Assembly: GCA_035604955.1 (NCBI GenBank)
Contig: DATNHM010000056.1
Coordinates: 22,733 to 86,732 of the forward strand
DNA length: 64,000 nucleotides
Direction: 5' to 3'
Origin: Candidatus Limnocylindrales bacterium
GTDB lineage: Bacteria > Verrucomicrobiota > Verrucomicrobiia > Limisphaerales > UBA11358
Shown here: positions 37,435 to 55,201 of the stretch, piece by piece
Numbering within the stretch: position 1 is the first letter of the stretch
Layout of the letters: every line of letters starts with the position of its first letter
The notes under the pieces: model-generated
Told to the model about the DNA's origin: nothing
The model's input: the letters and a program-made list of their open reading frames with translations, nothing else
The model's database searches: none
Made by a program: the position numbers and the translations under genes

Positions 37435-40400
37435 TTAACGCTCGAGCAGCCGGAAGAATTTCGGGCTGGTGGCCGGGCCGGTCTGGTTAGTGTCCGTAAA
37501 GGTGTACACGCCGTTGCTCAAGCCCAGCACGGGATTGGACAGGACGAACCAGTTCGATAACGGCAATCCGAGGTTCGTCGTCCAGAGCACCGAATACTGG
37601 TAATTCGTCGGCGCCACCCACTGGAACCAGACGGCGTTGCCGATCATCGCGGTGTTGATGATGGTCAGCGACTGCGGGATGGGCGTTGAATAGGGATATT
37701 CAACGAGCCGGTAGAATTTCAGCGGCCCCCAGCCGCCCGTCAGCGAGCCGTCATCCAGGAACTGGAAGAGGCCGTATGCCGCGTTGGTGGGCGACAGGGC
37801 CACCGGCCACTTCAGAACCACATTGGAGATGGTATGCCACGCAATCGCCGGCGCGAGGTTGGTCGCCCATTCCACCTGGAACTGGTAATTCGTCGGCTCG
37901 GTCCATTGCAGCAGGATCTCATTGGTCCCGCCGACATTGGTAACCGTGATGCTGGAGATGGACGGCGGGTTGGTCGGCGGCGAGCCGTAGGCAAAATTCA
38001 CCTGAAAAGAGAATATCACGTTGCTGGTGCCGAGGCTTTGGATGCCGAGATAATAATTCGCGCCCGGCACGAGCGGCGGCGTGGAACTGCCCGTGAGCAC
38101 GAACGTGCCGCTGGTGTTGGTGGACACCAACAGCACATCACCGGCGCCGGTGTTGCCGGTGGGGGGAGTGTTCTGGTTGAACCACACGTCCACCGGGCCG
38201 CTGGCAGAGACCAACACATTGGTCGCTGCAATGGCGTTGGTCGGCACGGTCACCGTCAACGGCGTGATAGTCCCGGACACCACGATATTGGTCACGGGCG
38301 TCGAGTTCGTAATCGGTCCGGAAAGCAGATTGGCCACCAGCCGGTAAAACTTTTCGGGCGGCCATCCGCCGGTCAGCGAGCCGTCGTCAAACCAGGAATA
38401 ATCCCCGTTGGTGGGCGTGTAGGTGACGTTGATGACCGGGTTCGAGACCGTGTTCCAGGGAATCACCGGCGCGAGATTGGTCTTCCACTGGATGGTATAT
38501 TGATCATTGGTCGGCCCAGTCCACTGGAGCAGAAAGCCATTTGTTCCGTTGACGTTCGTCTGCGTGAGGGTGGGACCGGTGATGGGAATGGGAATCACGA
38601 GATGGAAATCCACCTCCAACCCGAAGTTCACGGGCACATTGTTGGTGTTTTGCACACCCAGGTAATAAGTCGCGCCGGGCACGAGCGGCGGCGTGCTGCC
38701 CGCGCTCAAAATGGAAATGCCGCTAGTCGCATTGGGAATCAGGAGATAATCCGGCGGATTGGTGCCCGTGGGCAATCCAGTCTGATTAAACCAGACATTG
38801 ACCGGCAGGCTGGCAAAGAGCAGCAGATTGGTGGCGTAATCGGCATTCGTCGGCAGCGTCACCGAATAATAGACAAAGCTGTTCGTCGGAACGGAATTGG
38901 TGGTGGGCACGCCGTTGGTCAGGGAAGAGGCGATATGGTGGAAATTCACCACCAGCGCGTAAGTGGCATTGCCGGCATTCGTGTTTTGGACAGCCAAATA
39001 ATAAGTCAAGCCGGGCAGCAGCGGCGGCACCGAGTTCGTGCTCAGTACATTGGTTCCGCTGAGCGCGTTGGCAATCAGGAGATAGTCCGGCGGTGTCAAG
39101 CACACCGGCGGCCTGCTTTGATTGAACCACATGTTCACCGGCACGGTGGAAGAGAGCAGCAGATTCGTGGCATAATCGGCGTCCGGCGGCACCTTCACCG
39201 AATAATAGTCCACGCCATCTCCTGAAATGGCTCCAGCAACGGTGTTCGTTACCGGCACGCCGGGGGTCACCGGCGTTGTCTGGAAGTAATGGAAATTCAC
39301 CTGGAACCCGCTCGTTACGGGGAAGGCATTGGGATTTTGCAGGCCGATGTAGTAAATGCCGCCGGGCACGATGTTCGTGGGCACGCTGAAGGTGCTCAAT
39401 ACCGATGTGCCATTGATCACGCCGCTCAACAGCAAATTATTGCCCGGCGGTGGAGGGGTGGCGGAATTAAACCATACGTTCAACGGGCCGGTGGCAAAGA
39501 CCAGAATGTTCGTGGCGACATCCGCGTTGGCCGGCACATTGATCAGGTAATTGGTCCAGCCGCCGGCGGGAATCACATTGGTCGCCGTGGTGCCGGGCGG
39601 AATCGCGTTGGCATTGGTGCCGAAGGTCACATAATTGAACCGCAACTGCCAGCTCAGCAGTTCCGGTATGGGATTGGTGGCGCCCACACGGTCATCCTGG
39701 ATTTCCAGCGTCCAATTACCCTGCGCATTCAGCCCGTCATACGTGTCCAGCGACTGTTCGGGCAGATAGTAAAGGTTATTGACGGACGGTGATAAGCTGA
39801 AGGAATCCAGTAACATGCCTGGTTCCACACTAGCAATCTGCAGCGGCGTTGCGTTCTGGGTGGCCGTGAAAACGATCGTTTTCGTCTGCCACGCGGAGTC
39901 GTTGCCCAAGAGTGTAGTGGGCGTGCCGCCGTTGATGCTGACCTGAGCCTCGGCCAGCGATTGGGGATTGGGCTCGCCAGAATCGAACTTGCCGGCGGAG
40001 CCGTTCTGGTAAATCGCCTTGATCTCAGAAGCGGACAGGGCGCGGTTGTAAATACTGATTTCATCCATCAATCCCGCGTAACGGGTGCCATTGAGAGCCT
40101 CCGCGTTGTTCCGCCATCCCAAATTCACGGGCTCTCCGATACTCGGCGGAATATCAGGTGTTGCAACGTTTACCTGCACCTGTCCGCCATTGTAGTACAG
40201 ATATTCGGTGGCGGTTGCGAGGTTATAGGTAAACGCGATATGGCTCCACGCGTTGGCAGGGACGATTCCGCCGGAACTGGTGATGGCCACGTTGGCGTTA
40301 GGACGAAGATTGGCATAGATAGCACCCGGAATGGTGCTCAGTCCGGAACCATTGATCCACAAGTGCGCCGCCGAACCTTGACCGGGACCTCCGTAGTCAA

Positions 40401-43400
40401 TAATCGGCTCATATTGGCTTGTGGTGGGATAAATCCAGCCTTCAAAGGTCAGATTGCTCACTGCCAGACTCGCGGAAGGTCCGATGGTTACCGAACTGGA
40501 ACTGCCATTGAAATTGAAGGCCTGCCCAACTTTACCTGCCTGGTAGGTGATGTTCGGCGCGCTGACGGCGTTATTGCCAAAGCCGCTGCTGTCATTGGTG
40601 TTATTTTCGGCGCGCCACCATCCGACAATGCCCGGCCCGCGATAGCGGAAGGTCAGGACATAAGTCTGGCCAGCCACGGTGGGCAGGGTGCTGGAAACCG
40701 TGCCATTGGCCAGCGCCAGGAATTGGTTTCCGGCGTCGGCATTGGCAGGATCATTCACCACACTCACCTGATTGCCGAGTACGTTCCACACATTCGTTCC
40801 GTCATTGAAAGTGGTTGTGTAATCCCCTGGCGTAGCGGAATCAAAACCACTGGCAGCAAGGTTGGTTGAAGATGTGTTCGGCAAAAACGGCGGTACCGCA
40901 AACTTGATGGGTGTGGTCGTCAGGTTCGTGTTCTCGGTGAAGACCAGATAATTGTAATTGGTGATGACGGCAGTCACGCTCGCGGCGTCCAGCAACATCC
41001 CCGGTTCAAGGCCTTGAATCTGCAATGCGGTGGTGCCGCTGGTGGCTGTAAAAGTAATGGTTTGGGGCTGCCAGGTGGTGTTGTTGCCAAAGAAGGTGTT
41101 GGTGGTGACGCCGTTAATGCTGACTTGCGCTTCAGCCAGGGCCCCTGGAATAGACTTGTTGGGATTAAAATCGCCGTTTGTACCGTCGGCGTAAATGGCC
41201 TGGATTTCAGACGCGGACAAACTTCTGCCATAGAAACCGAGCTCGTCAATCGAACCGTCGAAGTAATCCTGGGTAACACCGGGCGCTCGCAGCCACGCGC
41301 CAATCGTCACCGGCGTGGTGGACGCGTACACCGGTACCGGGGCATTGATGTGCACGCCAACCGGCGCCCCGTTCACATAAAGGCGCCGAGTTCCCGTCGC
41401 GCTGTCGTAAGTCGCGGCGACATGATTCCATTGATTCAAAGTCAGCACATTTGCGACAACGAACGCCTGAAACACAGCATTGCCCTGATTCGCCAAATCG
41501 CTGATCGAAAAGCCAAGACCCTTCCCCACGTCGGTTTGAAAACTGTAACTCCGTTCGTTGCTATAAGTCCCTTGGTCTCCCCATTTCACCAAAATCTTTG
41601 CTTCTTTATCAACCAGCGGATAAATCCATCCTTCAATCGAGAAGGCCCCCGTAGGATTGAGGGAAGGCGCGTTGAGAATCCCGACATCGTTGTTCGCCCC
41701 GTTAAAGCTAAAGGCCGAACCAACTTCGCCCAAACCATAAGCGCCGGTGCCGTTCCAAGTGCCGTCATTTCCACCACCCGCGCTGTCAAGCGGGTTGTTC
41801 TCGCCGCGCCACATGCTGACGATGTCCGGCCCACGATACTGGAACGTCAGAGTATAGGTGGCGCCCGGTACCGTAGCCAGGGTCGTGTACAGCGTGCCAT
41901 TGGCCAGCGCCAGCAGGTTGCTATTGCCTGTATAGGCATTGACCGGGTCGGTTTGAACGCTGACTTGATTGCCGGCCACAATCCAACCGCCCACGGGCTG
42001 GCCGGCGGCATAGTCTCCCGGCGCCACCGTATCAAAGTCGCTGGCCAGCGCATTATTGGTGGTAACGGTGGCGACCCCGCCTGCGCCGTTGGGATCGGTG
42101 CCGCCGCGGTTTTCCATCAGCAACTCGCGCGTGCCGTCGGGACTGATCAAGTGGAACACCAGATCCGAAATGCGCGGATGCTGCACCGCAATGGCCACGT
42201 CCATTGACGAAATGATTTGGTTGTCCGGCACGTTGATCTGATCGGTCGTCACGGCGTCATCCAGAATCGGGATGGGCGTGTCGGTGGAACTGTAAATCGT
42301 CTGGGCCGGCACAAACGGCAGGTCAATGGTCGCAAAAAGGGTCACCTCTTGTACCGCCGACTTGGGGTTGGGATTAAACAGGCCGATAAAATAGCGGCCC
42401 GAAACCAATGGCGGGCCGAGGGATATAACGCCATTCGGAGTGAGCGGCACCACCGCATCATAATTATTTGTGGTCGGCTCCGAGCCGAATTTGACAAAAA
42501 GTTCGACCGGCGGAGTGGCCGTGTCGGTAAGGTTTGTGGCATAAACCGTCAGGTCGGTCGCCCCGGGCGGCACGTCAACGAAAGTGTAAACCCAACTGCC
42601 GCCTGGAACGTAATTCGTTATGACGCCAACCGTGGGATCCAGGTGCGGGTAAATCGTTGTGGTGAAACCGTTCACCGCTCCGGTTTGCGTCAGTGAATCA
42701 TCCACTTCATTCAACATCCACACGCCGAGGCCTTGTTGGCCGAAATAGCCGATCAAACTACCCGGCCCATCCGACGGGCGCGAACCGGGAATGCCGCCGC
42801 CCGCGCTGTCGTCATAGGTCAGGAAATACGGTCCGGGCGGACCGCCCAGGGAATCGTGATTATTCAGCACATCGGCGTGAGCGCCATTGAGCGTGAGCGT
42901 GCCGATCAGGTCGCCGAAATTCTGATGCGTAATCTCGTTGGCAACCGTGACCGTTCCCACCGTCTCCGGATAGATCGCCAGGCCGAAGACGTAGCCTTTG
43001 CCCGGAACGGTCGGGCTCCCGTCGGGGATATTCATTGGCACCGGCACGCCATACACCGTCTGAACTCCGTTGTTCATTGTGCTGAACGGTGCCGCGCTGA
43101 AGATGGCAATGAAGCCGTACTCGGCCGATTGCTGATCCTCCGACTTCACGCCGACATAATAAACGTTCGGAGCAGGTCTTGACCACGAATTGGTGTCCAC
43201 GACAAATTCCGTGGTTCCTCGCCCCAACGATGCGCCGGCGAATGGGCCGCCGGGCGGCGCGCCAATCTGCGTGCCGACGACGGCGTTGGAAATCGCCGCG
43301 GGGTTCAGATTGGTGATTGACGGATCGGTGGTCACGTACATGTCAATGTCCGCTTCGCGCGTGGCATTGCCGACCGAGGTTTGATAAACACCCAGGCGAG

Positions 43401-46400
43401 GAATGGAGAGCGTGTCTGGGTCAGGCGCGTTCGGGTTAAATGTGATAAACGCCGCGTTGGAAAGACTGGACGGGTTGAGGTTGGTGACGACATAGAATTG
43501 CCACTGGTTGGTCTGGCCGACGGTCACCTGCCAGTTGTTCGGCCCGAAACCCTCCGGAGCGCTGGCGGTGAACGGAATCGTATTCGTGCCCAGCAATGGG
43601 CTGTTCGCGCCGGCAAACTGGTTCAGCAATTCTGCAAAGCTGGTGGCCGTAGGCCCGCTTCCTGCAGAAGTTTGGGAGGGATAAGTGATTTGCTGGTCGC
43701 CCGTGGCGTTGTACACCGACGAAGTGGTGTTGGAGGTCACCATCATCACATTAGTCAGCCCGCTGTTGCCGGTGGAAATCACCAGCGCATAATCCTGAAC
43801 GACATTGTTGGTCTGCGCGGTGACGGCGTTGACGTTGACGCGGTAGCCCAGGACGGTGACGGAAAAATTCGTGCCCGCCCCCGGCTGCAAATAAACGTTT
43901 TGCACGTTGTTGATGGAGTCAAAGACCGGCGGCGTGTTGGTGGCGTGCGGGTTGTTAACCGTCGAAGAGCCAATGTCGTTGCCGTAATAGACAATCGGAT
44001 TGGTCGGGTTGCTGAGGTTGGTCACGACCAAAACCAGGTTGTTCACGAGTTTGATGGCGGCGGCGGGGTCGCCGGGCGGATCGGTCCACGCCAGCGTCAC
44101 GCGCAACGGCGCCCCATTGGTGGCAAAGGTGACTTGATAGGTCTGGCTGCCTCCGGTCGCCAAGGCATTGGCCGGGCTTTGGTCCTGAATGTAAGCGGAA
44201 CAAGCCACGCTGAGCTGGTTGGTGACGCCCGGCGGCAGCGAATCCGGCAGGTTTACCAATCCCCAGCCTTCGTAATTGAGCGTGTTTTGGACCAGGAAAT
44301 TGTAGAGGCCTGTCGCCTGCCCGCCGTTGATGATCATCGCCTTGAGCATCGCCGGGCTGGGCAGAACGTTGTAGGCATTGAAGTAAAATTGCTGCATCAA
44401 CGCCAGCACGCCCGACACGTCCGCCGCCGCCATGCTGGTGCCGGTTTCATAGCGGTAATACGGCCCCTGCCCGGTGCTGAGGGAATTAGGCGTCCCAATG
44501 GAATTGTCCAGATTGCTCAACGCCAGAAAATAATTCCCGCTGCCGTTGGTCGTGATGACATCCGTCCGCAAATCGAAAATCACCTGATTGGGCGTGTTGT
44601 TGCTGATGGCAAAATTGAAACCGAAAAAGCTTTGCGAATTGTAAATCGCTGTGAGGCTTGGAGTCCCGGTAGTGCCGGGAATCAACACTGGATAATTGGT
44701 GAAGGGACCGTACACAGTCGGCGAACCGAACAAAGTAATTCTCAGGGGAAGATCGGCAAAACTGAACGGCGAGTTGGCATTCGGAAAAGTCCAGATCTGG
44801 CATTCCACCGTATTGGTCGGAATCGTCGGAAACGGCCGGGAAACAATTGAACCCGGCTGGACCGTGAAACCGGTGTAATATTTTGACTGGTCGTTGGTCG
44901 GGTTTTGATAAAAATACGTTCCGATGTCCCATTGTTCGGAGCGGGTGGACAGGGTGAACGTGCCCGGCGCGCAGACATCCGGTTTGTAACGGCCAACCGA
45001 GCCTTCGATGCCGACGCCTACGTTGCCCCGGCTCGAAAATCCGGCGACGCGATAGCGGGTGGAAGTCTCATCCGCCCACGACGTGTTGGGTGAACCGTCG
45101 GCATTGGTCACCGTGACCGAGATGTTGCGGTCTTCCTGAATCGCGCCGACCGTGATGACGTCCTTGGCCGTGGCGGGCGACTCAATCGAGTCGGCTACGC
45201 CGCCGCCGAGGTCCTCGCTGTCGCTGCCGTTGCCGGCGTTGCCGGCGGCGAAGACAAACAACACCGGTTGCGAACCTGTGACAAAGGGAAGTGCGTCGCG
45301 CGTGGCCGCGTCGTAGCTGGCCGCCGCCAGGTCATAAACGCTGTCGCCTTCATAGACCCAACTGTTGTTGGAAATGAGCGCGTTGGTCAGCGCCGGAACC
45401 GTCTGAAAATAATAGTCGGAAATGAAATTTGAAGTCGCCTCCGCGCCGCCGAAAATGCCACCCACCGAATACAACGTCGCTCCCGGCGCCATGCCGCGAA
45501 ATTCGTAATTGGTGCCCGTGCCGCCGGGCAGAGTTGAACCCGGCGCGTTGGTCACGGTCGTGGATTTCGCGCCGTCACCGGCGATGATGCCCGCCACGTG
45601 CGTGCCGTGGCCGTTGGTGTCCACCAGGCTTTGCGGCGCGTCCCCAATGACGCCGGGGGTAATTTTGTTATAGTTGCCGCCGCCGGATAAATCGGGATGC
45701 TGAGCGTCAATGCCGGTATCGTTCACCTCCACCGTCACACCCGCGCCCGTCAACCCCAGATAATTGGTCGCCGTAAGACTGTCGGCGGCCACGCCATTGG
45801 CGGCGCGCGACAAATCATTCGCCACGGCGCGCCGATGGAATGGCTCCACGATTTGGACCCCGGGCAGAGTGGCCAGGGCCGTCCAATTTTTCGGCGGAAT
45901 GACGCGCACGACGGGACCGAACGGCGACTGGTCATCGCCCACGACCTGGCCGCCGAGTTTTTCAATTTGCTGGACCGTCGCCGGCGCGTTGTCGGCAAAC
46001 AATCCGAGTTTCAACGCCTGGCCGTCCGCCAACTGATTTTGGTTGACCGCCGGATAAAGGAGCGATGACTGTATCTTGTAATACGGTTCGTAGGGAACAA
46101 CCGTCTGCGTCTGCGGATTGGCGCTCAAAACTCCGGCCACGCTGGCGGAGGCGCGCACCAGATAGGCGTCGTTCGGAATATAGGCAACCATCGTCGCGCC
46201 CGCCTGCGCGAGCATGGCCCGGAAGGCATTGTCAATCGGGCCGCGCGCCTGGACGATGTATGCGCCGGGGTCGCCCGGCGATTGCAGGTTTTTGGGGAAG
46301 ACAAAATTGAGCGGCAGGCTCGTATCCATCAACGCGTTCGCCAATAAAATCGCATGGCGGTCGCCGACCAACTGGCCGATGGATTTGGTGGTGTTGCTCA

Positions 46401-46635
46401 GACGCCCGGCAAACCTGTTGGTGTTCCACTCCGCCAGGCTGATTTGCGTCACGTTTGTGTTGATTACCCCCTGGCTTGAAACCACCGGCGCGGTTGAAGC
46501 GGGATGGGTGGCGACCGTCGTCGGGACGATGTTGCTTATCTGCCCCGGCGAATGGTTGCCGTGGTGCCAAAGCAGCCAGGCCCCGGTCCCACACAACAGG
46601 CACAACAGCCCCCAGATCAATGATCGCGCACGCAT
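37435..46635 (-). CDS. giant (3066 aa) secreted multidomain subtilisin-like S8 serine peptidase with P-domain-like, LamG-like and repeated beta-sandwich modules
   Basis: N-terminal signal/anchor MRARSLIWGLLCLLCGTGAWLL. Catalytic triad contexts VNDTGID (Asp ~306), GHGTHVAGIIAG (His ~343) and GTSMAAADVSGVLALM (Ser ~734). Post-catalytic LRVTLAWTDPPGD. Proprotein-convertase P-domain-like segments (HQNFGDLIGTLTLNG; VQHPRISDLVFHLISPDGT; NWTLEIQDD). Two LamG-like modules (GWIYP...DELGFYGRSLSASEIQAIY; GWIYP...MDEISIYNRALSASEIKAIY). About five copies of a ~105-aa PPC-like module (..NVWFNQ...PPLVPGATYYLGVQN..). Three copies of a terminal QW..PTN.QY...W.TNL...W......F.D......KFYRL domain. Confidence 0.9.
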   Translation of the reverse strand: MRARSLIWGLLCLLCGTGAWLLWHHGNHSPGQISNIVPTTVATHPASTAPVVSSQGVINTNVTQISLAEWNTNRFAGRLSNTTKSIGQLVGDRHAILLANALMDTSLPLNFVFPKNLQSPGDPGAYIVQARGPIDNAFRAMLAQAGATMVAYIPNDAYLVRASASVAGVLSANPQTQTVVPYEPYYKIQSSLLYPAVNQNQLADGQALKLGLFADNAPATVQQIEKLGGQVVGDDQSPFGPVVRVIPPKNWTALATLPGVQIVEPFHRRAVANDLSRAANGVAADSLTATNYLGLTGAGVTVEVNDTGIDAQHPDLSGGGNYNKITPGVIGDAPQSLVDTNGHGTHVAGIIAGDGAKSTTVTNAPGSTLPGGTGTNYEFRGMAPGATLYSVGGIFGGAEATSNFISDYYFQTVPALTNALISNNSWVYEGDSVYDLAAASYDAATRDALPFVTGSQPVLFVFAAGNAGNGSDSEDLGGGVADSIESPATAKDVITVGAIQEDRNISVTVTNADGSPNTSWADETSTRYRVAGFSSRGNVGVGIEGSVGRYKPDVCAPGTFTLSTRSEQWDIGTYFYQNPTNDQSKYYTGFTVQPGSIVSRPFPTIPTNTVECQIWTFPNANSPFSFADLPLRITLFGSPTVYGPFTNYPVLIPGTTGTPSLTAIYNSQSFFGFNFAISNNTPNQVIFDLRTDVITTNGSGNYFLALSNLDNSIGTPNSLSTGQGPYYRYETGTSMAAADVSGVLALMQQFYFNAYNVLPSPAMLKAMIINGGQATGLYNFLVQNTLNYEGWGLVNLPDSLPPGVTNQLSVACSAYIQDQSPANALATGGSQTYQVTFATNGAPLRVTLAWTDPPGDPAAAIKLVNNLVLVVTNLSNPTNPIVYYGNDIGSSTVNNPHATNTPPVFDSINNVQNVYLQPGAGTNFSVTVLGYRVNVNAVTAQTNNVVQDYALVISTGNSGLTNVMMVTSNTTSSVYNATGDQQITYPSQTSAGSGPTATSFAELLNQFAGANSPLLGTNTIPFTASAPEGFGPNNWQVTVGQTNQWQFYVVTNLNPSSLSNAAFITFNPNAPDPDTLSIPRLGVYQTSVGNATREADIDMYVTTDPSITNLNPAAISNAVVGTQIGAPPGGPFAGASLGRGTTEFVVDTNSWSRPAPNVYYVGVKSEDQQSAEYGFIAIFSAAPFSTMNNGVQTVYGVPVPMNIPDGSPTVPGKGYVFGLAIYPETVGTVTVANEITHQNFGDLIGTLTLNGAHADVLNNHDSLGGPPGPYFLTYDDSAGGGIPGSRPSDGPGSLIGYFGQQGLGVWMLNEVDDSLTQTGAVNGFTTTIYPHLDPTVGVITNYVPGGSWVYTFVDVPPGATDLTVYATNLTDTATPPVELFVKFGSEPTTNNYDAVVPLTPNGVISLGPPLVSGRYFIGLFNPNPKSAVQEVTLFATIDLPFVPAQTIYSSTDTPIPILDDAVTTDQINVPDNQIISSMDVAIAVQHPRISDLVFHLISPDGTRELLMENRGGTDPNGAGGVATVTTNNALASDFDTVAPGDYAAGQPVGGWIVAGNQVSVQTDPVNAYTGNSNLLALANGTLYTTLATVPGATYTLTFQYRGPDIVSMWRGENNPLDSAGGGNDGTWNGTGAYGLGEVGSAFSFNGANNDVGILNAPSLNPTGAFSIEGWIYPLVDKEAKILVKWGDQGTYSNERSYSFQTDVGKGLGFSISDLANQGNAVFQAFVVANVLTLNQWNHVAATYDSATGTRRLYVNGAPVGVHINAPVPVYASTTPVTIGAWLRAPGVTQDYFDGSIDELGFYGRSLSASEIQAIYADGTNGDFNPNKSIPGALAEAQVSINGVTTNTFFGNNTTWQPQTITFTATSGTTALQIQGLEPGMLLDAASVTAVITNYNYLVFTENTNLTTTPIKFAVPPFLPNTSSTNLAASGFDSATPGDYTTTFNDGTNVWNVLGNQVSVVNDPANADAGNQFLALANGTVSSTLPTVAGQTYVLTFRYRGPGIVGWWRAENNTNDSSGFGNNAVSAPNITYQAGKVGQAFNFNGSSSSVTIGPSASLAVSNLTFEGWIYPTTSQYEPIIDYGGPGQGSAAHLWINGSGLSTIPGAIYANLRPNANVAITSSGGIVPANAWSHIAFTYNLATATEYLYYNGGQVQVNVATPDIPPSIGEPVNLGWRNNAEALNGTRYAGLMDEISIYNRALSASEIKAIYQNGSAGKFDSGEPNPQSLAEAQVSINGGTPTTLLGNDSAWQTKTIVFTATQNATPLQIASVEPGMLLDSFSLSPSVNNLYYLPEQSLDTYDGLNAQGNWTLEIQDDRVGATNPIPELLSWQLRFNYVTFGTNANAIPPGTTATNVIPAGGWTNYLINVPANADVATNILVFATGPLNVWFNSATPPPPGNNLLLSGVINGTSVLSTFSVPTNIVPGGIYYIGLQNPNAFPVTSGFQVNFHYFQTTPVTPGVPVTNTVAGAISGDGVDYYSVKVPPDADYATNLLLSSTVPVNMWFNQSRPPVCLTPPDYLLIANALSGTNVLSTNSVPPLLPGLTYYLAVQNTNAGNATYALVVNFHHIASSLTNGVPTTNSVPTNSFVYYSVTLPTNADYATNLLLFASLPVNVWFNQTGLPTGTNPPDYLLIPNATSGISILSAGSTPPLVPGATYYLGVQNTNNVPVNFGLEVDFHLVIPIPITGPTLTQTNVNGTNGFLLQWTGPTNDQYTIQWKTNLAPVIPWNTVSNPVINVTYTPTNGDYSWFDDGSLTGGWPPEKFYRLVANLLSGPITNSTPVTNIVVSGTITPLTVTVPTNAIAATNVLVSASGPVDVWFNQNTPPTGNTGAGDVLLVSTNTSGTFVLTGSSTPPLVPGANYYLGIQSLGTSNVIFSFQVNFAYGSPPTNPPSISSITVTNVGGTNEILLQWTEPTNYQFQVEWATNLAPAIAWHTISNVVLKWPVALSPTNAAYGLFQFLDDGSLTGGWGPLKFYRLVEYPYSTPIPQSLTIINTAMIGNAVWFQWVAPTNYQYSVLWTTNLGLPLSNWFVLSNPVLGLSNGVYTFTDTNQTGPATSPKFFRLLER

Positions 46636-46981: not shown

Positions 46982-49900
46982 TCAGTCGGCCGGCAAAACG
47001 TTAAACTGTTCAATCACCGCCGTGTTGTTGGTCACCGACGGTACCGTAATCCAATAGTACACGTTCGGAGCGGGATTGGTCAGAACAACACTGTTAACCC
47101 GCGTGCCATTAAAGCGCACCACGGCGCGGGTGGCCGCCTCCGCCACCACCTGATAATTCGTGACCATGCCGAAAAACGGCCCGCTGCCGGTGTAGATGCC
47201 GTTCGGCGCAGGCTTCAAGGTCTGGCCATAGCTGTAAATGACGTAGCGCGGCGTATCGCTGACGTGCAACAGCGACATCACCTGCTCCGGCAGCCACTCG
47301 TACATCTCGTCGCTGACGCCATTTACCTGTTGGACGGTATCGTTCCAGTTCAGGAACGGCGATTGCCAGGTCAATTGCGGAACGGCCAGAATATCGCCGA
47401 CATGCTCAAACGAGCCGACCAGGCCGTCCGGATTGACGAAATTGGTGCGGGTTTGATTGATGCCCGCCACCAGTTGCCCCAGAGCCGAATTCAATCCCGG
47501 CGGGCCGGCGGGATTAATCGCAAACGGGGTAAAATTCCCCAATGAGCCATTGTGTTGGTCGGGCGGGGTCAAGGACCATACAGGCTGAGCCGCCCCTTTA
47601 ATGGTCGCGTCAATTGCATTATTGGAAAGCACGATGACACCACTGAACAAAGCCGACCACGCCGCAAGTCCGGCCTGCGGCGAAGGGTTCCCGGCATCCA
47701 CATTCACCGATAATTGGCCCAGCGTGGCGTTGTTGTTGGGCGCCGCAGTGAAAATATCAAACAACAGCCGGTCCTGTGCTGGCGCAGCGTTGGCCGCGTC
47801 ATAGTATTGGCCGTTGACGGACGAGGTGAGCAGCGTGTCCCCAGTCCACTGTGCCCAAGTGTTGGTTCCGATGTAGTTCGTGGTGCTACCGCTCACCAGG
47901 GTTTGCTGAAGAATGTCCGGCGACTTGAGATAAACCGTCTGCCACGGCGTGCCGCGATGGACCCGGCCCAGCCAGCCGACCGACGGGAATTTATAACTCG
48001 GAAAATCCCAGTCATCCGACTGCCACACCAGCGGATCCTTGAGGGCCAAATTGGAGGGATTCTGGTCTTCGTTTGGCAGCCTCCAATTGCCGCCCCATGG
48101 CCGGTAACTCTGGTTCAACTGGCCAAGATTGCCGTTTGGACTGTTGGTCATCAGGCTGTCCACGTACCTATCGTACACAATGGCGCTTTCTCCGTTCAGA
48201 CCCCAATTCAAATCGCCGGCCAGGTAATGAACCAAGGGATCGTTCGCCTGCCAGGAAACGTGTTGGACGACCGCGGCCGTGGGCGTATAGGGCGCTTGGT
48301 TGGAAAGGCTCGTCTGACCGATAGCAATGGCCGTCGCTTCACCAGCGCCGTAAGGCGGAGGCGGCGTGTAACCCATAAAGGCGCTGAATCCCGCGATTTC
48401 ATTGGCAAGCTGGGTGGGAGAGGTCGTATTCCAAATACCGCTGGATGAACTGGCTGTATAAAGGCCCATGGATACACCCACTTGACTGAGAATCCCGACG
48501 GGCACCCCACTTTGATCGAAGTTCGTATTCCACAGCTCGCTTCCGCTGGCTTGAGCAGTATTGATCGGAGCGTTATAGTTGGTGATGATTTCGGAGGTCA
48601 AATCGCGGTAACTGTCCGGCCCGCTCAACTGCACGTAGTCAATCACCCGATTCGGATTAACGGTGGTATCCAACATAAACACCTGAAATTCGTTGGACGT
48701 GGTCAAAAACCAATGCGGTTGAGGATAGAGGTTGCCGTTGATGTTCACGCCCGTTTCAAAAGGCAACGCCTGATTGGTCGTCAACGAACGCGGGGGATAA
48801 GTGATCCCATTGTACGTCAGCCCATTGATGAGGTATGTCGAGTTGGTGATGACGGTGACGTTCGTATAGAGTGGAATCTGGAATGAGAGCTGGGAACCAA
48901 GCGGATCCGTCACCGGATTGTAACCGGGCCAGACATATCCAGCGGTAATTTGAAGGTTGCTGGCAATCGGGAAAGCCGGATAGTCGGCGGAGAAGCCTTC
49001 ATCGTTCGTCAGGGCCGCATGCCTTAAATTATCCCTCACATAAATGACCATGCTGTCGTTAAATGAATTGGTGTACGAATTCCAGCATTCCACGCCAAAC
49101 TGATTGGAAATGTTGAGGTTGAACATTTGATTAAAATGGTAGTCGCCGGGATTGTTGGCGTAAGTGTCATTGGTGCTCAGACGCGTGACCTGCAACTTGC
49201 GGGTCAGTTGAAAGGCGCTTTCCATGTCGAATTTGTTGAAATGCGGGAAACCTTTCTTCGCGCCAATAATCCACGGCACGCCATAGACGTTCACATTCGT
49301 GTAAACAAAAGCGGGGCCATAACCGACAGGGTTAGGCGGATCAGGAATGGGACTTATCAAATCGGTGACCTCCACCGGCAGAGCCAGTTGAGGATCGCCT
49401 GGACCCGTGACAGTCCCAAGCTCAATTTGCCCGTTGGCATCGTAGTAGGAGCCGACCGGTTCATAACCGGCGATATAAACATTGGTGAAGCCGTTCTCAT
49501 TGGTGACCCAAAACGTCGGGCGGAAAACAGACGGGAAATTAGCACCAAGTGCGAACGTATTATTTGTGGTGGCATCATAAATATTGGCGGCGAGCTGGAG
49601 GACGCGCTGAACGGCGGGGGTATAGACAAATTGGTTATCCACAAACACCGGAACGTGTGAAATGCCAAAGGGCAAGGGAATGTTCGTGGGGTTCAGCACG
49701 GGATTGGCCGCCGTACTGATGTTGGTGAAACTGCCGTAAGTCGCCACGTAGTTTGATGGGTTTGCCACCATCCATTCCTGCGAATAATCGCGCAGCATCC
49801 GGTCGGCGGCGTTGGTGAAAAATTGCAGCGGCGTCCACGGAATGAGATTCGTTTCCATGTCGGGAACGACGTTGCCGTTGGCATCCACGTTCACGTAATT

Positions 49901-51346
49901 AATGTTGAGCTTGTTCTGCTCCGGCGCGGATGCCACGCCCATCTGCGAGAGCAGCCGGTAATAGGTGTAGCGGTTATAGGTGGAAGGCCCACCGTCAGCC
50001 AAAGTCAAATGATTGGTGAAGGAGATGGAAGATTCACTCGGGTTAAACAACTCCTGCAAATCAAAAAATTGATTGGTGTTGGGAGCGCCGGCCCATGGCA
50101 GCGTGGGGTCATCCCGATTACGTCGATTACCCGCTTCGTTGATGGGCGCTGGCGTGGTTTGCAGCGGCCCGTCGCTGTATTCATCAATGTTGTCAAATGG
50201 GACAGTGCCAGACACCGGAAAATTGGGAGGCTGGTTGGCAAACAACAAATTGGCGCGCTTCAAACTCAGATAGTTGTTCTGGTAGCGATAAGCCAGCAGC
50301 GCCCGCGCGTCGTTAAAAGCCACTCCTTGGTTTTCGTAATTCGGGTAAGGTTGATTTTGATACCAATAGTATGTCACGTTGGGTGGCATGGTCGGAAGCC
50401 ATTGGTTGGTGTTCAAATCCGCAAGAAACGCGGCCAGATTGATTTCCCATGAGCCAACACCCTGATTACGCAAAAAGGAGTCGATCCCAGGTCCAAACGG
50501 AGAGGGATTCACACGAATCCGCCCATTTTGGGCCGGTTGTCCTTCGTCGCGAACCTGATTGTAAATGGCATTCAAATCCAGCGCGTTGCCGATGGGCACG
50601 GCAATAAAGGCGTAACGCGCCACAAACGGATTGTTGGGCCCGTACGGCTGGTCCGGATGTTGCAACACACCCACCCATTCCGGGTCGCCCGTTTCGGACA
50701 CGTAATTGGTCACGGGCAAGCCATCAATAATATTGACGATGGGGGAACCATTATTGCCAATTTCCGGCACCCAGCCGTTCGCGTCGTTCGTGCCATTGCG
50801 GTTCAAGTCGAGGTAGAAACGGAAATCGAGCGGGGCGTTCGGATTGGCATTGGTCTGGATGAACACCGGCGGGCGCGGGAGGTAATACAAGTTGCCCAGG
50901 TTCAATAGAAAATCGTTCAACGTCAGCGGATTTCCATTCGCATGTTCATATTGATAATTGACGTTGGTAAAGGCGGCGACGCCAGTCCAAAATCCGCTGG
51001 AATTGATGTAATTGGTCGAGACCAGGAGGCCGAAATTGTAGGGATTGGTGGTGGCGAGCGCATTGGCTACGATTTGTCCCTCGGCAGCGGCCAATGCGTC
51101 ATCGGCGGCCAATTTTGCCGAGGCGGTGTCGGTCGCGGTGGTCACCGCGCCGCGTTCACGCCGGCTGATGGCGAGGAACGTAAGGGCCATGAACGTCACC
51201 ACCGCCAGCAAAATCAGCGTGATGATCAAGGCAACGCCGTGTTGGGAGTGACGAGTGACGGGTGACGAGTGACACGAATGCGTCACGCGTGGCGCGCTGT
51301 TTTTCTCGTCACTTGTCACTCGCCACATGTCACATTTTAGTTTCAT
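46982..51346 (-). CDS. 1454-aa GspK/PilX-like protein, last gene of a four-gene minor-pseudopilin cassette
   Basis: N-terminus ...SQHGVALIITLILLAVVTFMALTFLAISRRERG is the GspK/PilX_N type hydrophobic helix without the G|F cleavage site and Glu5. A large N/T/P-rich extracellular region follows. The 4-nt overlap with the upstream gene suggests translational coupling. Confidence 0.75.
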   Translation of the reverse strand: MKLKCDMWRVTSDEKNSAPRVTHSCHSSPVTRHSQHGVALIITLILLAVVTFMALTFLAISRRERGAVTTATDTASAKLAADDALAAAEGQIVANALATTNPYNFGLLVSTNYINSSGFWTGVAAFTNVNYQYEHANGNPLTLNDFLLNLGNLYYLPRPPVFIQTNANPNAPLDFRFYLDLNRNGTNDANGWVPEIGNNGSPIVNIIDGLPVTNYVSETGDPEWVGVLQHPDQPYGPNNPFVARYAFIAVPIGNALDLNAIYNQVRDEGQPAQNGRIRVNPSPFGPGIDSFLRNQGVGSWEINLAAFLADLNTNQWLPTMPPNVTYYWYQNQPYPNYENQGVAFNDARALLAYRYQNNYLSLKRANLLFANQPPNFPVSGTVPFDNIDEYSDGPLQTTPAPINEAGNRRNRDDPTLPWAGAPNTNQFFDLQELFNPSESSISFTNHLTLADGGPSTYNRYTYYRLLSQMGVASAPEQNKLNINYVNVDANGNVVPDMETNLIPWTPLQFFTNAADRMLRDYSQEWMVANPSNYVATYGSFTNISTAANPVLNPTNIPLPFGISHVPVFVDNQFVYTPAVQRVLQLAANIYDATTNNTFALGANFPSVFRPTFWVTNENGFTNVYIAGYEPVGSYYDANGQIELGTVTGPGDPQLALPVEVTDLISPIPDPPNPVGYGPAFVYTNVNVYGVPWIIGAKKGFPHFNKFDMESAFQLTRKLQVTRLSTNDTYANNPGDYHFNQMFNLNISNQFGVECWNSYTNSFNDSMVIYVRDNLRHAALTNDEGFSADYPAFPIASNLQITAGYVWPGYNPVTDPLGSQLSFQIPLYTNVTVITNSTYLINGLTYNGITYPPRSLTTNQALPFETGVNINGNLYPQPHWFLTTSNEFQVFMLDTTVNPNRVIDYVQLSGPDSYRDLTSEIITNYNAPINTAQASGSELWNTNFDQSGVPVGILSQVGVSMGLYTASSSSGIWNTTSPTQLANEIAGFSAFMGYTPPPPYGAGEATAIAIGQTSLSNQAPYTPTAAVVQHVSWQANDPLVHYLAGDLNWGLNGESAIVYDRYVDSLMTNSPNGNLGQLNQSYRPWGGNWRLPNEDQNPSNLALKDPLVWQSDDWDFPSYKFPSVGWLGRVHRGTPWQTVYLKSPDILQQTLVSGSTTNYIGTNTWAQWTGDTLLTSSVNGQYYDAANAAPAQDRLLFDIFTAAPNNNATLGQLSVNVDAGNPSPQAGLAAWSALFSGVIVLSNNAIDATIKGAAQPVWSLTPPDQHNGSLGNFTPFAINPAGPPGLNSALGQLVAGINQTRTNFVNPDGLVGSFEHVGDILAVPQLTWQSPFLNWNDTVQQVNGVSDEMYEWLPEQVMSLLHVSDTPRYVIYSYGQTLKPAPNGIYTGSGPFFGMVTNYQVVAEAATRAVVRFNGTRVNSVVLTNPAPNVYYWITVPSVTNNTAVIEQFNVLPAD
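51246..51333. repeat. inverted heptamer arrays (GRGTGAC x4 / NNGYCAC x4)
   Basis: 51246-51273 is GAGTGAC GAGTGAC GGGTGAC GAGTGAC. 51306-51333 is TCGTCAC TTGTCAC TCGCCAC ATGTCAC. They lie in the first 100 nt of the 1454-aa ORF. Confidence 0.9.
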
Positions 51347-52371
51347 TGGTACGCCGTCTGGTCAACGTTGCGGATCACCACGCGCTGGCGGAACAGATGC
51401 ACCTGCCCGACGTGGTTCGACAAATAAGCCGTCTGCGCGTAGGCCGGCGCCACGTTGGGCAAACCTTCGGCGCGCTGGAGCGTGCTGTCTTCCAGCACCC
51501 CCAGCTCCACCTGCACCGACGCGGGCACGGTGTTGCTGTACATGTAAAAGCCAAACACACCGGGGACGGATTGCAGGAAAAAAAGCGTGTTTTGGTTGGT
51601 AAATGTATTATTTCCCCCGCTGTAATAATACTCGGCGGTGTTCGTCATTTCCAAACCATTGGGATCGTAAGGGCGCACTGTCAAATCCACCACGCCATCC
51701 ACCAAATGGCTCCAATACGCGGAATTGGTCGGTTGCGTTAAAGTTGACATAAAGGCGTTGTACAGCGAAGCGGGCAGCGCGGCTTGCACATTCGTGGTCG
51801 CATAGAAACGGTAGAGGGCATAGATGTCGTTCGTATCCGGTGGCGGCCTGTTCGCGACCACCGTATAACCCGTGCCCACCCAGGTCGGGCTGCCGCCGAT
51901 ATTTTGACGGCTCAGGCTGAAAAAGCTTTCCAGCAGGTTGGTGCGCAACTGGCTGCTGGCCGTCAACGACTGCATCAACGGCGGCGGAGCAGTAAGATAG
52001 TTTGCCAGCACAGTGTAAAAATTGAAGTTATTGTTCGTGTTGAGATTGTCCGCGTAATTCCCGTATTTCCAAAGGCTATTAGTGTTAACCGGGCTTGAAG
52101 ATGGCGTCATGGCTTCGAGATCGCTGGTGATCAGGCCCATGGCCAGGCGGCCGGATTCGAGAATATCGGTCTGGGTGAGGCTGGCGCGAAAGGCCTTCTG
52201 GGTGCTGTTGAAGACCGTCATCAGCGCCAGCACGATAAGCGACAGCAAGGCCAGCGTCACCAGCATCTCGACCAGAGTGAAGCCAGCGCAAGTAAAGGCC
52301 AAAGGCTGAAGGCTGAAGGCTGAAACCTCCTTTCGCTCCTGACGCATTATTTTTATTTTAGACTTTAGCAT
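51343..52371 (-). CDS. prepilin-type protein (GspJ/PilW-like minor pseudopilin), 342 aa
   Basis: ...SAFSLQPLAFTCAG|FTLVEMLVTLALLSLIVLALMTVF. An alternative start MRQERKEV lies at 52347. Confidence 0.75.
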   Translation of the reverse strand: MLKSKIKIMRQERKEVSAFSLQPLAFTCAGFTLVEMLVTLALLSLIVLALMTVFNSTQKAFRASLTQTDILESGRLAMGLITSDLEAMTPSSSPVNTNSLWKYGNYADNLNTNNNFNFYTVLANYLTAPPPLMQSLTASSQLRTNLLESFFSLSRQNIGGSPTWVGTGYTVVANRPPPDTNDIYALYRFYATTNVQAALPASLYNAFMSTLTQPTNSAYWSHLVDGVVDLTVRPYDPNGLEMTNTAEYYYSGGNNTFTNQNTLFFLQSVPGVFGFYMYSNTVPASVQVELGVLEDSTLQRAEGLPNVAPAYAQTAYLSNHVGQVHLFRQRVVIRNVDQTAYQ

Positions 52372-52384
52372 TTAGCCTTTAGCT
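52295..52384. repeat. inverted heptamer arrays (AAGGCYG x4 / TTTAGNN x4)
   Basis: 52295-52322 is AAGGCCA AAGGCTG AAGGCTG AAGGCTG. 52357-52384 is TTTAGAC TTTAGCA TTTAGCC TTTAGCT. Confidence 0.9.
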
Positions 52385-52390
52385 TTTTCT

Positions 52391-53383
52391 TCATGGCGCG
52401 CTGGTGAACGTTTGCGGCTGGAAAAAATACAACCACTCTTTGTTATTGTAATCGCCGGTTTGAACCATTTGACCGGCGACCGATGTCCGGAATGTCTGGC
52501 GGCCATTGCCCGGGGCGCCGTTGGGCAGCAACGGCCAGAGGAACGTGAACCGCAGTTCACGCAGGTTGGAGGTGAGTTGCTGAGCTGGGGAACCCAGCAC
52601 CACCCATGGAGCAGAAGGCTGCCTTGGATTTTTACCGGTATTGGCAGCAGTTGCCCGCCAGGTAAGCCCAGCCCAGTAAACCTCGTCTCCAGCCTTGTAC
52701 TGCGTGGCCACTTGCCAAATCGGCGGGATGTAAACCGCCACCGGCACATTCTGACAAATCATCTTGTAGCTGAAGGAGTCACTGCGAATAATATCATTGT
52801 CCTGTGGCGGTTTTTCCACTGCCGGCCCGCTGAGAGAACGAACGTAAACGACCACGTAATTGCTGATGCCGCCTTCGACCAGATTGAGAATGGGCGCGCC
52901 GTTGCCCTGGTTGATATATTCCGGTGTGCTGAGCAACCCGATGATGTTCATGCCGTTGGTAAGGGGCGCGCCGGGCGGCGTACCGGCGGTCGGATACTTT
53001 GGAGCGATAGTGAAATTGGTGTAAGTATAACTGTTCACTCCGGGTTGAGGCAAAGCACCGATGGTCGGGTAGTACGCCCAGTAATTCGTGATCGCCAGAA
53101 CGTAATTGGTCAGGTCATCCAGGCCGCGTGCGCCGTTGCGGATGTTTTCGATGAACACGGTGGCGTCCTGGCCAATCAAGGTCTCCTCGCGATTGTCCTT
53201 CTGGACGTTGAGGCCGGCGGGCAGCACGCCGATGATGGCCACCAGCGCAATGCCGATGATGGCCAGGCAAATGGCAATCTCCACCATGGTAAAGCCGGCA
53301 CAGGCAAAGGCTGAAGGCTGAAGGCCGAAGGCTAAAACCTTTTCCCGCGCCCAGCGCGCATCCATTGTTTTAGAATTTAGCAT
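52391..53383 (-). CDS. prepilin-type protein (GspI/PilV-like minor pseudopilin), 330 aa
   Basis: ...LAFGLQPSAFACAG|FTMVEIAICLAIIGIALVAIIGVLP. An alternative start MDARWAREK lies at 53365. Confidence 0.75.
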   Translation of the reverse strand: MLNSKTMDARWAREKVLAFGLQPSAFACAGFTMVEIAICLAIIGIALVAIIGVLPAGLNVQKDNREETLIGQDATVFIENIRNGARGLDDLTNYVLAITNYWAYYPTIGALPQPGVNSYTYTNFTIAPKYPTAGTPPGAPLTNGMNIIGLLSTPEYINQGNGAPILNLVEGGISNYVVVYVRSLSGPAVEKPPQDNDIIRSDSFSYKMICQNVPVAVYIPPIWQVATQYKAGDEVYWAGLTWRATAANTGKNPRQPSAPWVVLGSPAQQLTSNLRELRFTFLWPLLPNGAPGNGRQTFRTSVAGQMVQTGDYNNKEWLYFFQPQTFTSAP

Positions 53384-53403
53384 TTAGACTTTATCCTTTT
53401 AGT
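53307..53403. repeat. inverted heptamer arrays (AAGGCNN x4 / TTTANNN x5)
   Basis: 53307-53334 is AAGGCTG AAGGCTG AAGGCCG AAGGCTA. 53369-53403 is TTTAGAA TTTAGCA TTTAGAC TTTATCC TTTTAGT. Confidence 0.9.
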
Positions 53404-53404
53404 G

Positions 53405-55164: not shown

Positions 55165-55201
55165 AGGTTTGAAAAAGTGTTGTGCCGGGAATGTTGAAGC
55201 C

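Follow-up and report, generated by a model that had tools for sequence, protein, structure and literature searches.

A KP-43-like subtilase with apparently nested lectin-like domains encoded at the end of a type IV pilus-like operon in a soil Verrucomicrobium

A protein of 3066 residues encoded in the 64,000-nucleotide stretch of DNA analyzed here (the window) is, judged from its sequence, an S8A subtilase most closely related to KP-43 and SubHal. Its gene occurs in a single copy in the 4.29-Mb genome of a soil Verrucomicrobium and closes a type IV pilus-like operon, a terminal position that is conserved among relatives and corresponds to the slot taken elsewhere by PilY1 or MshQ. We think it rather probable that the product is a secreted, catalytically competent lectin-protease, a KP-43/SubHal-type enzyme grown into a branched form by extension, either displayed on the filament or exported by it. 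The segments of the protein and the neighboring genes are listed in Table 1.

Table 1. Segments of the S8 subtilase and genes of the associated operon, with positions in the window
Feature	Residues	Position	Strand	Basis
Whole S8 subtilase gene	1-3066	37435..46635	-	Single open frame, 3066 codons plus stop
Hydrophobic N-terminal signal or anchor segment, non-prepilin type	1-25	46561..46635	-	Sequence reading
Conserved pro-region	60-285	45781..46458	-	Strong conservation in family alignment
S8 core, N part, with D306, H343 and N466	297-568	44932..45747	-	Pfam Peptidase_S8 profile 1-227; KP-43 alignment; residue conservation
Predicted beta-domain insert, family-specific, in hairpin just ahead of catalytic Ser	569-717	44485..44931	-	Unaligned to KP-43
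S8 core, C part, with S734	718-800	44236..44484	-	KP-43 alignment; residue conservation
KP-43-type C-terminal beta domain, WTDPPGDP motif	801-945	43801..44235	-	Aligned to KP-43 up to residue 426
Conserved region	946-1189	43069..43800	-	PPC-type pattern by eye
Uninterrupted, weakly P-domain-like module (HQNFGDL ... GVWMLNEVDD)	1190-1335	42631..43068	-	hhalign
PPC-like module M0	1336-1447	42295..42630	-	Pfam PPC 22.2 bits; hhalign
Pn, N-terminal half of split P-domain	1448-1526	42058..42294	-	P_proprotein profile 3-51 at aa 1477-1525; splice test
An1, N half of jelly roll 1, DUF642/choice-of-anchor-C-like	1530-1603	41827..42048	-	Splice test; relatives' jelly rolls
LamG 1, within jelly roll 1	1604-1827	41155..41826	-	Laminin_G_3, 92 bits
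Ac1, C half of jelly roll 1	1828-1900	40936..41154	-	Splice test
An2, N half of jelly roll 2	1928-2001	40633..40854	-	Splice test
LamG 2, within jelly roll 2	2002-2221	39973..40632	-	Laminin_G_3, 85 bits
Ac2, C half of jelly roll 2	2222-2289	39769..39972	-	Splice test
Pc, C-terminal half of split P-domain	2290-2345	39601..39768	-	P_proprotein profile 53-86 at aa 2297-2333; splice test
PPC-like modules M1, M2, M3	2346-2690	38566..39600	-	Chunked BLAST; hhalign
Terminal-type module T1	2691-2778	38302..38565	-	hhalign; genome frame search
PPC-like module M4	2779-2892	37960..38301	-	hhalign
Module T2	2893-2982	37690..37959	-	hhalign; genome frame search
Module T3, C-terminal end ...KFFRLLER	2983-3066	37438..37689	-	Genome frame search
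Upstream partner, 1454-aa GspK/PilK-like protein with "Verru_Chthon A"-like N-terminus		46982..51346	-	Profile match; synteny
Five prepilin-type genes, same operon		51343..56226	-	N_methyl / TIGR02532 matches
GspF/PilC, two GspE/PilB-type ATPases and one shorter T2SSE-family ATPase		56998..63075	-	Profile matches

The catalytic motifs are all present, with D306 in NDTGID, H343 in GHGTH, the oxyanion residue N466 in AAGNAG, and S734 in GTSMAA. The original prediction, made from this DNA alone, had called the S8 triad intact (Asp near 306, His near 343, Ser near 734), and this holds: His, Asn, and Ser are each found in all 32 of the family members compared, and Asp in 31 of them. The protease is apparently active. 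Scores against the Pfam Peptidase_S8 model were 111.7 to 130.5 bits (cut-off 21.8), and the D-H-S order together with the oxyanion Asn places the core in S8A.

The best solved relatives are the oxidatively stable S8A enzymes KP-43 and SubHal (PDB 1wmd and 5fax), at E 3e-25 with the single sequence and 3e-49 with the family profile. They share the D-H-N-S order and are closest in the core and the beta domain after it; in the HMMER comparison with KP-43 (1wmd), residues 289-568 correspond to KP-43 13-234 and residues 718-938 to KP-43 239-426, so that the core is followed directly by the C-terminal beta domain, as in the KP-43/SubHal type. The compact two-domain form of these enzymes, with a short hairpin before the Ser, is not retained, as 149 residues of the insert stand opposite only 4 of KP-43. 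Relative to KP-43, which has 434 residues in all, the 3066-residue protein adds about 145 residues between KP-43 positions 234 and 239, an N-terminal region of about 280 residues, and a C-terminal extension of about 2100. Foldseek with an AF2 model of residues 281-960 returned KP-43 first and then generic two-jelly-roll proteins. The overall pLDDT of this model was 52.8; the core was poor and only the insert was confident, probably because the alignment was shallow and confined to the family. NCBIfam matches to the anti-phage protein IteS and to mycosin were dropped as generic S8 similarity with scores far below the cut-offs.

At the extreme N-terminus the consensus MRxRxxxWxxxxLLxxAGAW is kept in the alignment of relatives. 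The pro-region had no match in the Pfam search, and its two halves showed no relation to each other in hhalign; from its motif only, we would take it to be a subtilase propeptide.

The insert ahead of the catalytic Ser sets this family apart. About 165 inserted residues had been proposed at residues 565-728, which is essentially right, the KP-43 alignment moving the limits to those in Table 1 and giving an extra length of about 145 to 149 residues. From APG to GTS there are 173 residues here and 151 to 177 in the 32 relatives, compared with 28 in KP-43 and 16 in subtilisin BPN'. Structure prediction makes the insert a beta domain of its own, with eight strands and one helix modeled at pLDDT 80-87 across residues ~580-700, and it is possibly PPC-like, as suggested by hhalign with module M0 (probability 82%, E 1e-5). 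Its mean identity within the family is 41%, compared with 64-65% in the core. One objection raised at the outset was that such an insertion might be common to an already described S8 subfamily. In our search no described S8 subfamily turned out to have it, and among 1.84 billion proteins only 57 representative clusters matched; almost all are either long proteins, matching at residues ~490-760, or short fragments. As far as these searches reach, the insert is confined to the family of the 3066-residue protein.

The C-terminal extension contains domains that appear to be nested in one another. BLAST of protein chunks, which we used to locate internal repeats, recovered the two super-repeats of about 360 residues in the original prediction, at residues 1525-1897 and 1922-2291, with about 50% identity and E down to 1e-29. 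Each holds a LamG domain well above the gathering cut-off of Laminin_G_3 (PF13385; 92.1 and 84.9 bits against 27.6). These LamG domains had been proposed to sit inside split jelly rolls, and the profile test bore this out. After the flanking halves An and Ac were joined, each pair matched choice_anch_C in one unbroken alignment (profile 18/21-145 of 157, 44-49 bits), compared with 26-29 bits for the N halves and 0-14 for the C halves when left unjoined; a DUF642 match likewise crosses the junction after joining. The same treatment of Pn and Pc gave one P_proprotein match (PF01483; profile 3-86 of 86, 52.2 bits against a gathering score of 21). The native P halves score 28.1 and 22.7 bits separately, and the full-length match was reached solely on joining. 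These results support a reading in which each LamG interrupts a jelly roll and both units together, about 765 residues, interrupt one P-domain. The nesting would then be three deep, LamG in jelly roll in P-domain, one level deeper than had been proposed. Membership of the jelly rolls in a named family is not supported, since the joined halves score 21.9-24.4 bits against 27 for DUF642 (PF04862) and 44-49 against 120 for choice-of-anchor C (TIGR04362), but a relation in fold is (E 2e-11 to 6e-13).

The relatives provide uninterrupted versions of the same jelly rolls (P0034, P0052, P0060, P0083, and P0114). The joined jelly rolls align with these end to end over 124 columns (probability 99.4-99.6%, E 6e-22 and 9e-24), and the alignment crosses the An/Ac junction, which falls on a short loop, without a gap. 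Where homologues have both P halves (89 proteins), these are always split, by 400 to 1338 residues with one to three units within. In relative P0023 a C-type lectin lies inside the LamG, and excising the lectin restores the Laminin_G_3 profile from position 2 to 151. The AF2 model of residues 1440-2360 had a mean pLDDT of 73.7 and a pTM of 0.48, with both halves at 75-86. It gave LamG-type Foldseek matches only, among them 5hon at TM 0.77, a match not attributed to one LamG copy. An NCBIfam match to "TafC fimbrial protein" was dropped, as it reflects LamG similarity to a haloarchaeal Tat-fimbria subunit.

Taken singly, the halves match the profiles poorly if at all, and Pn, Pc, An, and Ac could instead be separate small or decayed domains, with An-LamG-Ac an ordinary tandem. 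We regard this as very unlikely: the joined matches are continuous with complementary profile ranges and additive scores, uninterrupted copies run gap-free over the junction, both P halves persist in all 89 proteins despite the variable stretch that separates them, and both halves are modeled with good pLDDT.

Nested insertions in general follow an A1-B1-C-B2-A2 pattern and reach up to six levels in cyanobacterial RNA polymerase (PMC13114784). The pattern proposed here is the same, but each insert is larger than its host, a LamG of about 220 residues in a jelly roll of about 145 and 765 residues in a P-domain of about 135. The family would therefore be a bacterial case of nesting three to four levels deep with guests that all exceed their hosts, contrary to the usual size trend of domain insertion (PMC13114784). 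The "split-domain display" of the RTX (T1SS) adhesins is similar in that a stalk beta-sandwich is interrupted in one loop by domains of the sugar-binding type, and it would thus occur outside the RTX group too. The hosts differ, being Ig-like repeats in RTX adhesins and a P-domain and DUF642-like jelly rolls here, as do the depth of nesting (three here, four in relatives) and the kind of protein, which is the protease of a pilus operon and not a T1SS adhesin.

P-domains of this profile are known from kexin and furin and from Aeromonas ASP (PDB 3hjr), and the family profile also matches the ASP P-domain. Together with the database name "subtilisin-like proprotein convertase family protein" and the JGI names, the P_proprotein matches could suggest a kexin/furin-like (S8B) protease that processes long-leader pilins or other exoproteins. 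We find this hardly credible. The catalytic domain is nearest to KP-43 and not to the kexins, and the P-domains lie more than 390 residues from the core, the certain one being split by 765 residues, and are not packed right behind it as in the kexin/furin type. Prepilin leaders are normally processed by an aspartic prepilin peptidase, and lectin heads on a stalk of about 2000 residues would be unexpected in a periplasmic processing enzyme.

The rest of the extension is a chain of smaller modules. Three P-domain-like segments had been described, of which two (Pn and Pc) are apparently halves of a single P-domain; the third, residues 1190-1335, stands as a separate, weakly P-like segment that has no Pfam match and aligns with joined Pn+Pc over 86 columns crossing the junction (hhalign E 3.3e-4, probability 38%). 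The KP-43 C-domain showed no relation to the P modules in hhalign. For residues 946-1189 we found neither a Pfam nor an hhalign match, and the two halves of this region (X1 and X2) were unrelated by hhalign to each other and to M0. The count of about five PPC-like modules of ~105 residues was correct, the limits of M1 to M3 being residues 2346-2455, 2456-2570, and 2571-2690. The five appear mutually homologous by hhalign, with nine of the ten pairs at 96-100% probability (M0 with M1, M3, and M4 at 96-98%) and the pair of M0 and M2 at 67%. Residues 1352-1419 of M0 reach 22.2 bits, below the PPC (PF04151) gathering score of 25.9, and the other four modules are tied to M0 solely via hhalign. The three terminal domains of ~80 residues were also found, as modules T1 to T3 of about 85 residues each (mutual hhalign probability 99.6-99.9%).

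The S8 gene and the pilus genes upstream are all on the same strand, and in the window the S8 gene comes right after the three I/J/K-type minor pilin genes (51343-54301) and the giant PilK/GspK-like gene. We compared related loci that had 8 kb or more of sequence upstream. In 55 of the 58, three minor pilin genes are followed by a GspK/PilK-like gene (~1400 residues) and then directly by the S8 gene; the other three have no pilin neighbors. Because of this conserved last position, the protein is probably shown on or exported by the filament. There is a precedent in a large non-pilin protein whose gene follows pilIJK homologues and which docks at the tip via its extreme C-terminus (PMC13533445). 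The tip adhesins PilY1/PilC (type IVa pili) and MshQ (MSHA pilus; PMC13533445) resemble our protein in that they are very large, are not pilins, have a signal-like segment at the N-terminus, and are encoded right behind pilI/J/K-type genes in conserved order. In this tip class the extreme C-terminus completes the beta sheet of the PilK-type minor pilin; the likeness of our protein to the class is known from gene position. Unlike PilY1, the 3066-residue protein carries a protease, and the PilY1 beta-propeller (PF05567) is absent from its whole-protein Pfam matches at E <= 0.1; a genome-wide PF05567 search gave no matches here or in the control genomes and so says nothing on this point.

The upstream genes match GspG/H/I/J/K models as well as pilin models. 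At their N-termini they match the models of the Verru_Chthon cassette (TIGR02596/98/99/02600) and of T2SS GspH-I-J-K, but with scores far below the cut-offs (e.g., 27.6 versus 332 bits), so they are related in kind and are not members. No secretin gene was found on the contig; four confident ones lie on other contigs of the genome. We read the shorter T2SSE-family ATPase as a PilT-like retraction ATPase, which points to a retractile pilus.

The original prediction of a fibre-associated degradative adhesin agrees with the strict conservation of the gene's place after the minor pilins, and the following can be put forward as a working interpretation. The catalytic core carries the family-specific predicted beta domain of ~145 residues looped out of the hairpin right before the catalytic Ser, and this domain, beside the primed side of the cleft, may gate or select substrates. 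A chain of beta-sandwich modules (the KP-43 C-domain, the P-like module, and PPC-like modules) follows the core. From the split P-domain, between profile positions 51 and 53, would leave a 765-residue branch of two jelly rolls, each looping out a LamG from one hairpin, and this nested design could push the lectin heads sideways from the stalk. The LamG heads, and in relatives the C-type lectin heads as well, might bind glycans on polymers or cells, and the protease might cut the captured material. By analogy, the filament would bear the protein at its tip, as with PilY1 or MshQ, or export it in the manner of a T2SS.

A less likely but reasonable alternative is that the protein, with the same architecture, is a free exoenzyme, released or cell-wall bound, that travels as cargo of a T2SS-like use of the filament or of a separate pathway reading the T module. 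The subtilases of Dichelobacter nodosus depend on type IV fimbrial machinery to be secreted, and there are many proteases among T2SS substrates; both are precedents for an exoenzyme, and the matches of the upstream genes to Gsp models point the same way. The T module also occurs in 24 other frames of the genome, and in 21 of these it lies 0-3 residues from the stop. These frames include astacin, GH18, GH5, and glucoamylase-like enzymes, with signal-peptide hydrolases among them, so that the module, ending some 20 other frames, looks more like a general sorting tag than a tip dock. Against a free exoenzyme are the presumed PilT-type ATPase of the operon and the position of the S8 gene, locked behind the PilK-like gene in the 55 loci, while the genes of the other T-tagged frames lie dispersed across the genome. 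We continue to favor the filament-displayed or filament-exported lectin-protease.

A bolder version, which we consider doubtful, is that the T module (...RFYRVxxxP-COOH) serves the type IV filament as a signal for docking or sorting and loads the lectin-protease, and perhaps the ~20 T-tagged frames, onto the 1454-residue PilK-like tip subunit, the retractile pilus then being a "fishing line" by which degradative enzymes are carried or handed out. An FYRL-type ending also closes both internal T copies, and its conservation alone is therefore not proof of tip docking. If the proposal were true, cargo of a type IV filament or T2SS-like system would be marked by a signal defined in its sequence; we know of none at present. 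The PilY1/MshQ slot and the genome-wide C-terminal tag together offer a testable link between type IV filaments and enzymes.

Relatives occur in at least 545 species-level genomes, mostly of Limisphaerales from peat, soil, and lakes. A literature search on this protein family found no specific paper. The domain map could be used to design constructs of the core with or without the insert, of isolated LamG heads, and of the T module. The automatic annotation "proprotein convertase" is misleading for this family.

The S8A/KP-43 protease, P-domain, DUF642-like jelly roll, LamG and PPC parts of the 3066-aa subtilase are of known kinds. New here are the exact domain map (tabulated below), the splitting of the P-domain, how deep the nesting goes, a family-restricted insert at the catalytic serine, and the finding that the T module is used terminally across the genome.

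Coordinates of the subtilase gene, its domains and associated features
Feature	Residues (aa)	Window (nt)	Strand
Subtilase (S8) gene, single open frame of 3066 codons		37435-46635	-
Insert before catalytic Ser	569-717
KP-43-type C-terminal beta domain	801-945
Weakly P-like, uninterrupted module	1190-1335
PPC-like module M0	1336-1447
P-domain, N half (Pn), P_proprotein match	1477-1525
First super-repeat	1525-1897
Linker between nested units	1898-1927	~40855-40944
Second super-repeat	1922-2291
P-domain, C half (Pc), P_proprotein match	2297-2333
T1-T3, T-module copies in S8 gene	2691-2778, 2893-2982, 2983-3066	37438-38565
Other T-module frame, example		5978-7516	-
Relic of last T module (G000:C56:58408-58608)		~35676-35876	-
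GspK/PilK-like gene (1454 aa)		46982-51346	-

The two super-repeats are about 50% identical in a chunked self-BLAST, and each contains one Laminin_G_3 domain (92 and 85 bits) whose flanks give partial matches to choice_anch_C (profile 18-103) and DUF642. The original prediction of a LamG nested in a split jelly roll was examined by joining the flanks of each inserted domain in silico and matching them to profiles. The joined halves gave one continuous choice_anch_C alignment (profile 18/21-145 of 157, 44-49 bits), compared with 26-29 bits for the N halves and 0-14 bits for the C halves unjoined. A DUF642 match spans the junction (profile 64-137 of 138), and the separate halves give none. The same jelly roll occurs without interruption in five relatives, all of them proteins with DUF642 in their precomputed Pfam list. 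The joined halves align with these natural copies over 124 columns (probability 99.4-99.6%, E 6e-22 and 9e-24), and the junction falls gap-free on the loop Y-x-x-N-P-...-P. This end-on-end match bears out the nesting and indicates that LamG is looped out of a single hairpin of the DUF642-like jelly roll. Few stretches of this region are as conserved across the family as the linker between the two units (consensus YLxFTExTNLTTTPIKFAxPPF).

A further level of nesting, beyond the domain-in-domain arrangement first proposed, is indicated by the P-domain. The P_proprotein matches of its two halves, about 770 residues apart, are complementary (profile 3-51 and 53-86). Joined, they gave a single match over profile 3-86 of 86 (52.2 bits, E 7e-14); separately they score 28.1 and 22.7 bits. 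Of the three P-domain-like segments originally described, P-type matches are indeed present, but two are halves of one domain and the third is only weakly P-like. This third, uninterrupted module aligns over the Pn/Pc junction (86 columns, E 3e-4, probability 38%) and lends the split modest support. Among homologues mapped with module queries, all 89 with both P halves have them split, by 400-1338 aa. Between the halves, 35 homologues have one jelly roll-LamG unit, 18 have two and 16 have a unit with an interrupted LamG; the remainder have other combinations. Profile and comparative evidence thus point to a P-domain interrupted by two linked jelly rolls, each in turn interrupted by LamG. This layout is compatible with an AF2 model covering aa 1440-2360 (pLDDT 73.7 overall, 75-86 in the halves); a Foldseek search with the model returned LamG-type matches only (best 5hon, TM 0.77). 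In some family members LamG is itself interrupted by a C-type lectin domain; in the homologue P0023 this domain scores 34.6 bits, and its excision restores Laminin_G_3 profile 2-151. Relatives therefore reach four levels, with P0023 aa 1685-2235 reading as C-type lectin in LamG in jelly roll in P-domain.

Domains nested within domains have been described before, to a depth of six levels in RNA polymerase (PMC13114784), but in the subtilase each guest exceeds its host in size. In RTX adhesins, split domains push ligand-binding domains out of the stalk (PMC12077191, PMC10865825). The subtilase shares this split-domain design, but uses it recursively and in a protease.

Pfam Peptidase_S8 matches the protein in two stretches, the first being profile 1-227 at aa 297-568. 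Among solved proteins, KP-43 (1wmd) and SubHal (5fax) come closest, and the family profile matches them with an E of 3e-49. Residues 289-568 align with KP-43 13-234 and residues 718-938 with KP-43 239-426, the latter alignment identifying the C-terminal beta domain (WTDPPGDP), for which Pfam has no model. The predicted triad is intact: D306, H343 and S734, together with N466, all lie within canonical motifs, with H, N and S invariant among 32 members and D present in 31, a conservation that argues for a working enzyme.

The resemblance to KP-43 in the core and beta domain does not extend to the length before the catalytic Ser. The interval from APG (556-558) to GTS (732-734) is 173 residues, and 151-177 in 32 relatives, compared with 28 in KP-43 (counted from sequence) and 16 in subtilisin BPN'. 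The extra ~145-149 residues, originally estimated at ~165 (aa 565-728), lie in the turn of the hairpin running into the catalytic Ser. In an AF2 model of the catalytic region that was otherwise poor (mean pLDDT 52.8), the insert was predicted with confidence (pLDDT 80-87) and has eight strands and one helix. Mean identity is 41% in the insert and 64-65% in the core, so the insert evolves faster. Whether such an insertion is common to a described S8 subfamily was checked by searching with it alone against 1.84 billion representative proteins. Nearly all of the 57 clusters matched were either long proteins, with the match near residues 490-760, or pieces of them. The insert is thus characteristic of this family rather than of a described S8 subgroup. 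By analogy with subtilisin structures, it flanks the primed side of the cleft and may act as a lid or exosite. The hhalign link between the insert and M0 is weak (probability 82%, E 1e-5).

The five PPC-like modules anticipated were found, M0 and four between aa 2346 and 2892. They are mutually homologous, with nine of ten pairs at hhalign probabilities of 96-100% and M0 against M2 at 67%, although the Pfam PPC score reaches just 22.2 bits against a cut-off of 25.9. The three terminal domains likewise proved homologous (T1-T3, ~85 aa each; 99.6-99.9%). Residues 946-1189 and the N-terminal residues 60-285 are conserved and match no Pfam family.

The genes ahead of the S8 gene, on the same strand, encode two GspE/PilB-type ATPases, a shorter T2SSE-family ATPase that we read as PilT-like, GspF/PilC and five prepilin-type proteins. 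The 1454-aa protein encoded immediately before it has a GspK/"Verru_Chthon A"-type N-terminus, past which Pfam finds no domain, and is 35-70% identical across related loci. Three homologues inspected singly have the same neighbor genes. Homologues of the three minor pilins and of the giant GspK-like gene lie immediately upstream, in the same orientation, in 55 of the 58 related loci that have 8 kb or more of upstream sequence; of 15 shorter loci, 14 have at least a GspK-like fragment. In the remaining three of the 58 (L029, L066 and L079), pilin and GspK-like genes are absent from the ~9 kb upstream, and these S8 genes may be relocated or second copies. The S8 gene stands where pilY1 does in fimU-pilVWXY1 and where mshQ does behind mshDOP. 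The last ~10 residues of PilY1/MshQ are reported or predicted to complete the beta sheet of the PilK-type pilin (PMC13533445). Unlike PilY1, the S8 protein has no propeller among its Pfam matches, and its sequence contains no prepilin motif.

Of the full-length family members listed, nearly all have a (K/R)F(Y/F)R(L/V) motif 3-6 residues before their end. An HMM of the T modules, for which there is no Pfam or NCBIfam model, matched 24 other open frames of the window's genome, 21 of them with the module 0-3 residues from the stop. In all 17 frames examined, an FYR/FFR-type motif lies a few residues short of the stop; most have proline as the last residue, and many start with a signal-peptide-like N-terminus. 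Five were scanned with Pfam, giving an astacin, a glucoamylase-like enzyme, GH18, GH5 and one without a match. This placement at the C-termini of secreted hydrolases makes the T module, borne three times by the giant protease, a candidate sorting or docking tag. The protease is probably displayed on the filament, at its tip like PilY1 or MshQ, or exported by it; less probably it is a released or wall-bound exoenzyme. The tip-display and exoenzyme readings differ in whether the tag addresses the filament. The T-module relic, 64% identical and with two stop codons, sits downstream of the S8 gene, past a methyltransferase gene.

More than 499 relatives were scored, mostly from Verrucomicrobiota MAGs and usually named "subtilisin-like proprotein convertase family protein", "S8 family serine peptidase" or "LamG-like jellyroll fold domain-containing protein". 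When one genome per species was scanned by pattern, at least 545 genomes proved to have a relative. The best 80, 48-93% identical, all span query aa 281-960; going by their titles, most are Limisphaerales, Verrucomicrobia subdivision 3 or Verrucomicrobiia of peat, soil and lakes. A public metagenome holds a protein 99% identical to ours, and the window's own genome (4.29 Mb, 94.7% complete) has one copy of the gene. Limisphaerales-type S8 genes also occur on contigs titled as Bifidobacteriaceae, Bifidobacterium, Acidobacteriaceae, Akkermansia muciniphila or Methylomirabilota MAGs (L028, L029, L036, L040, L052, L072, L074 and L081), five of the eight with a GspK-like gene upstream. These titles are probably caused by mis-binning or mislabelling in public records.
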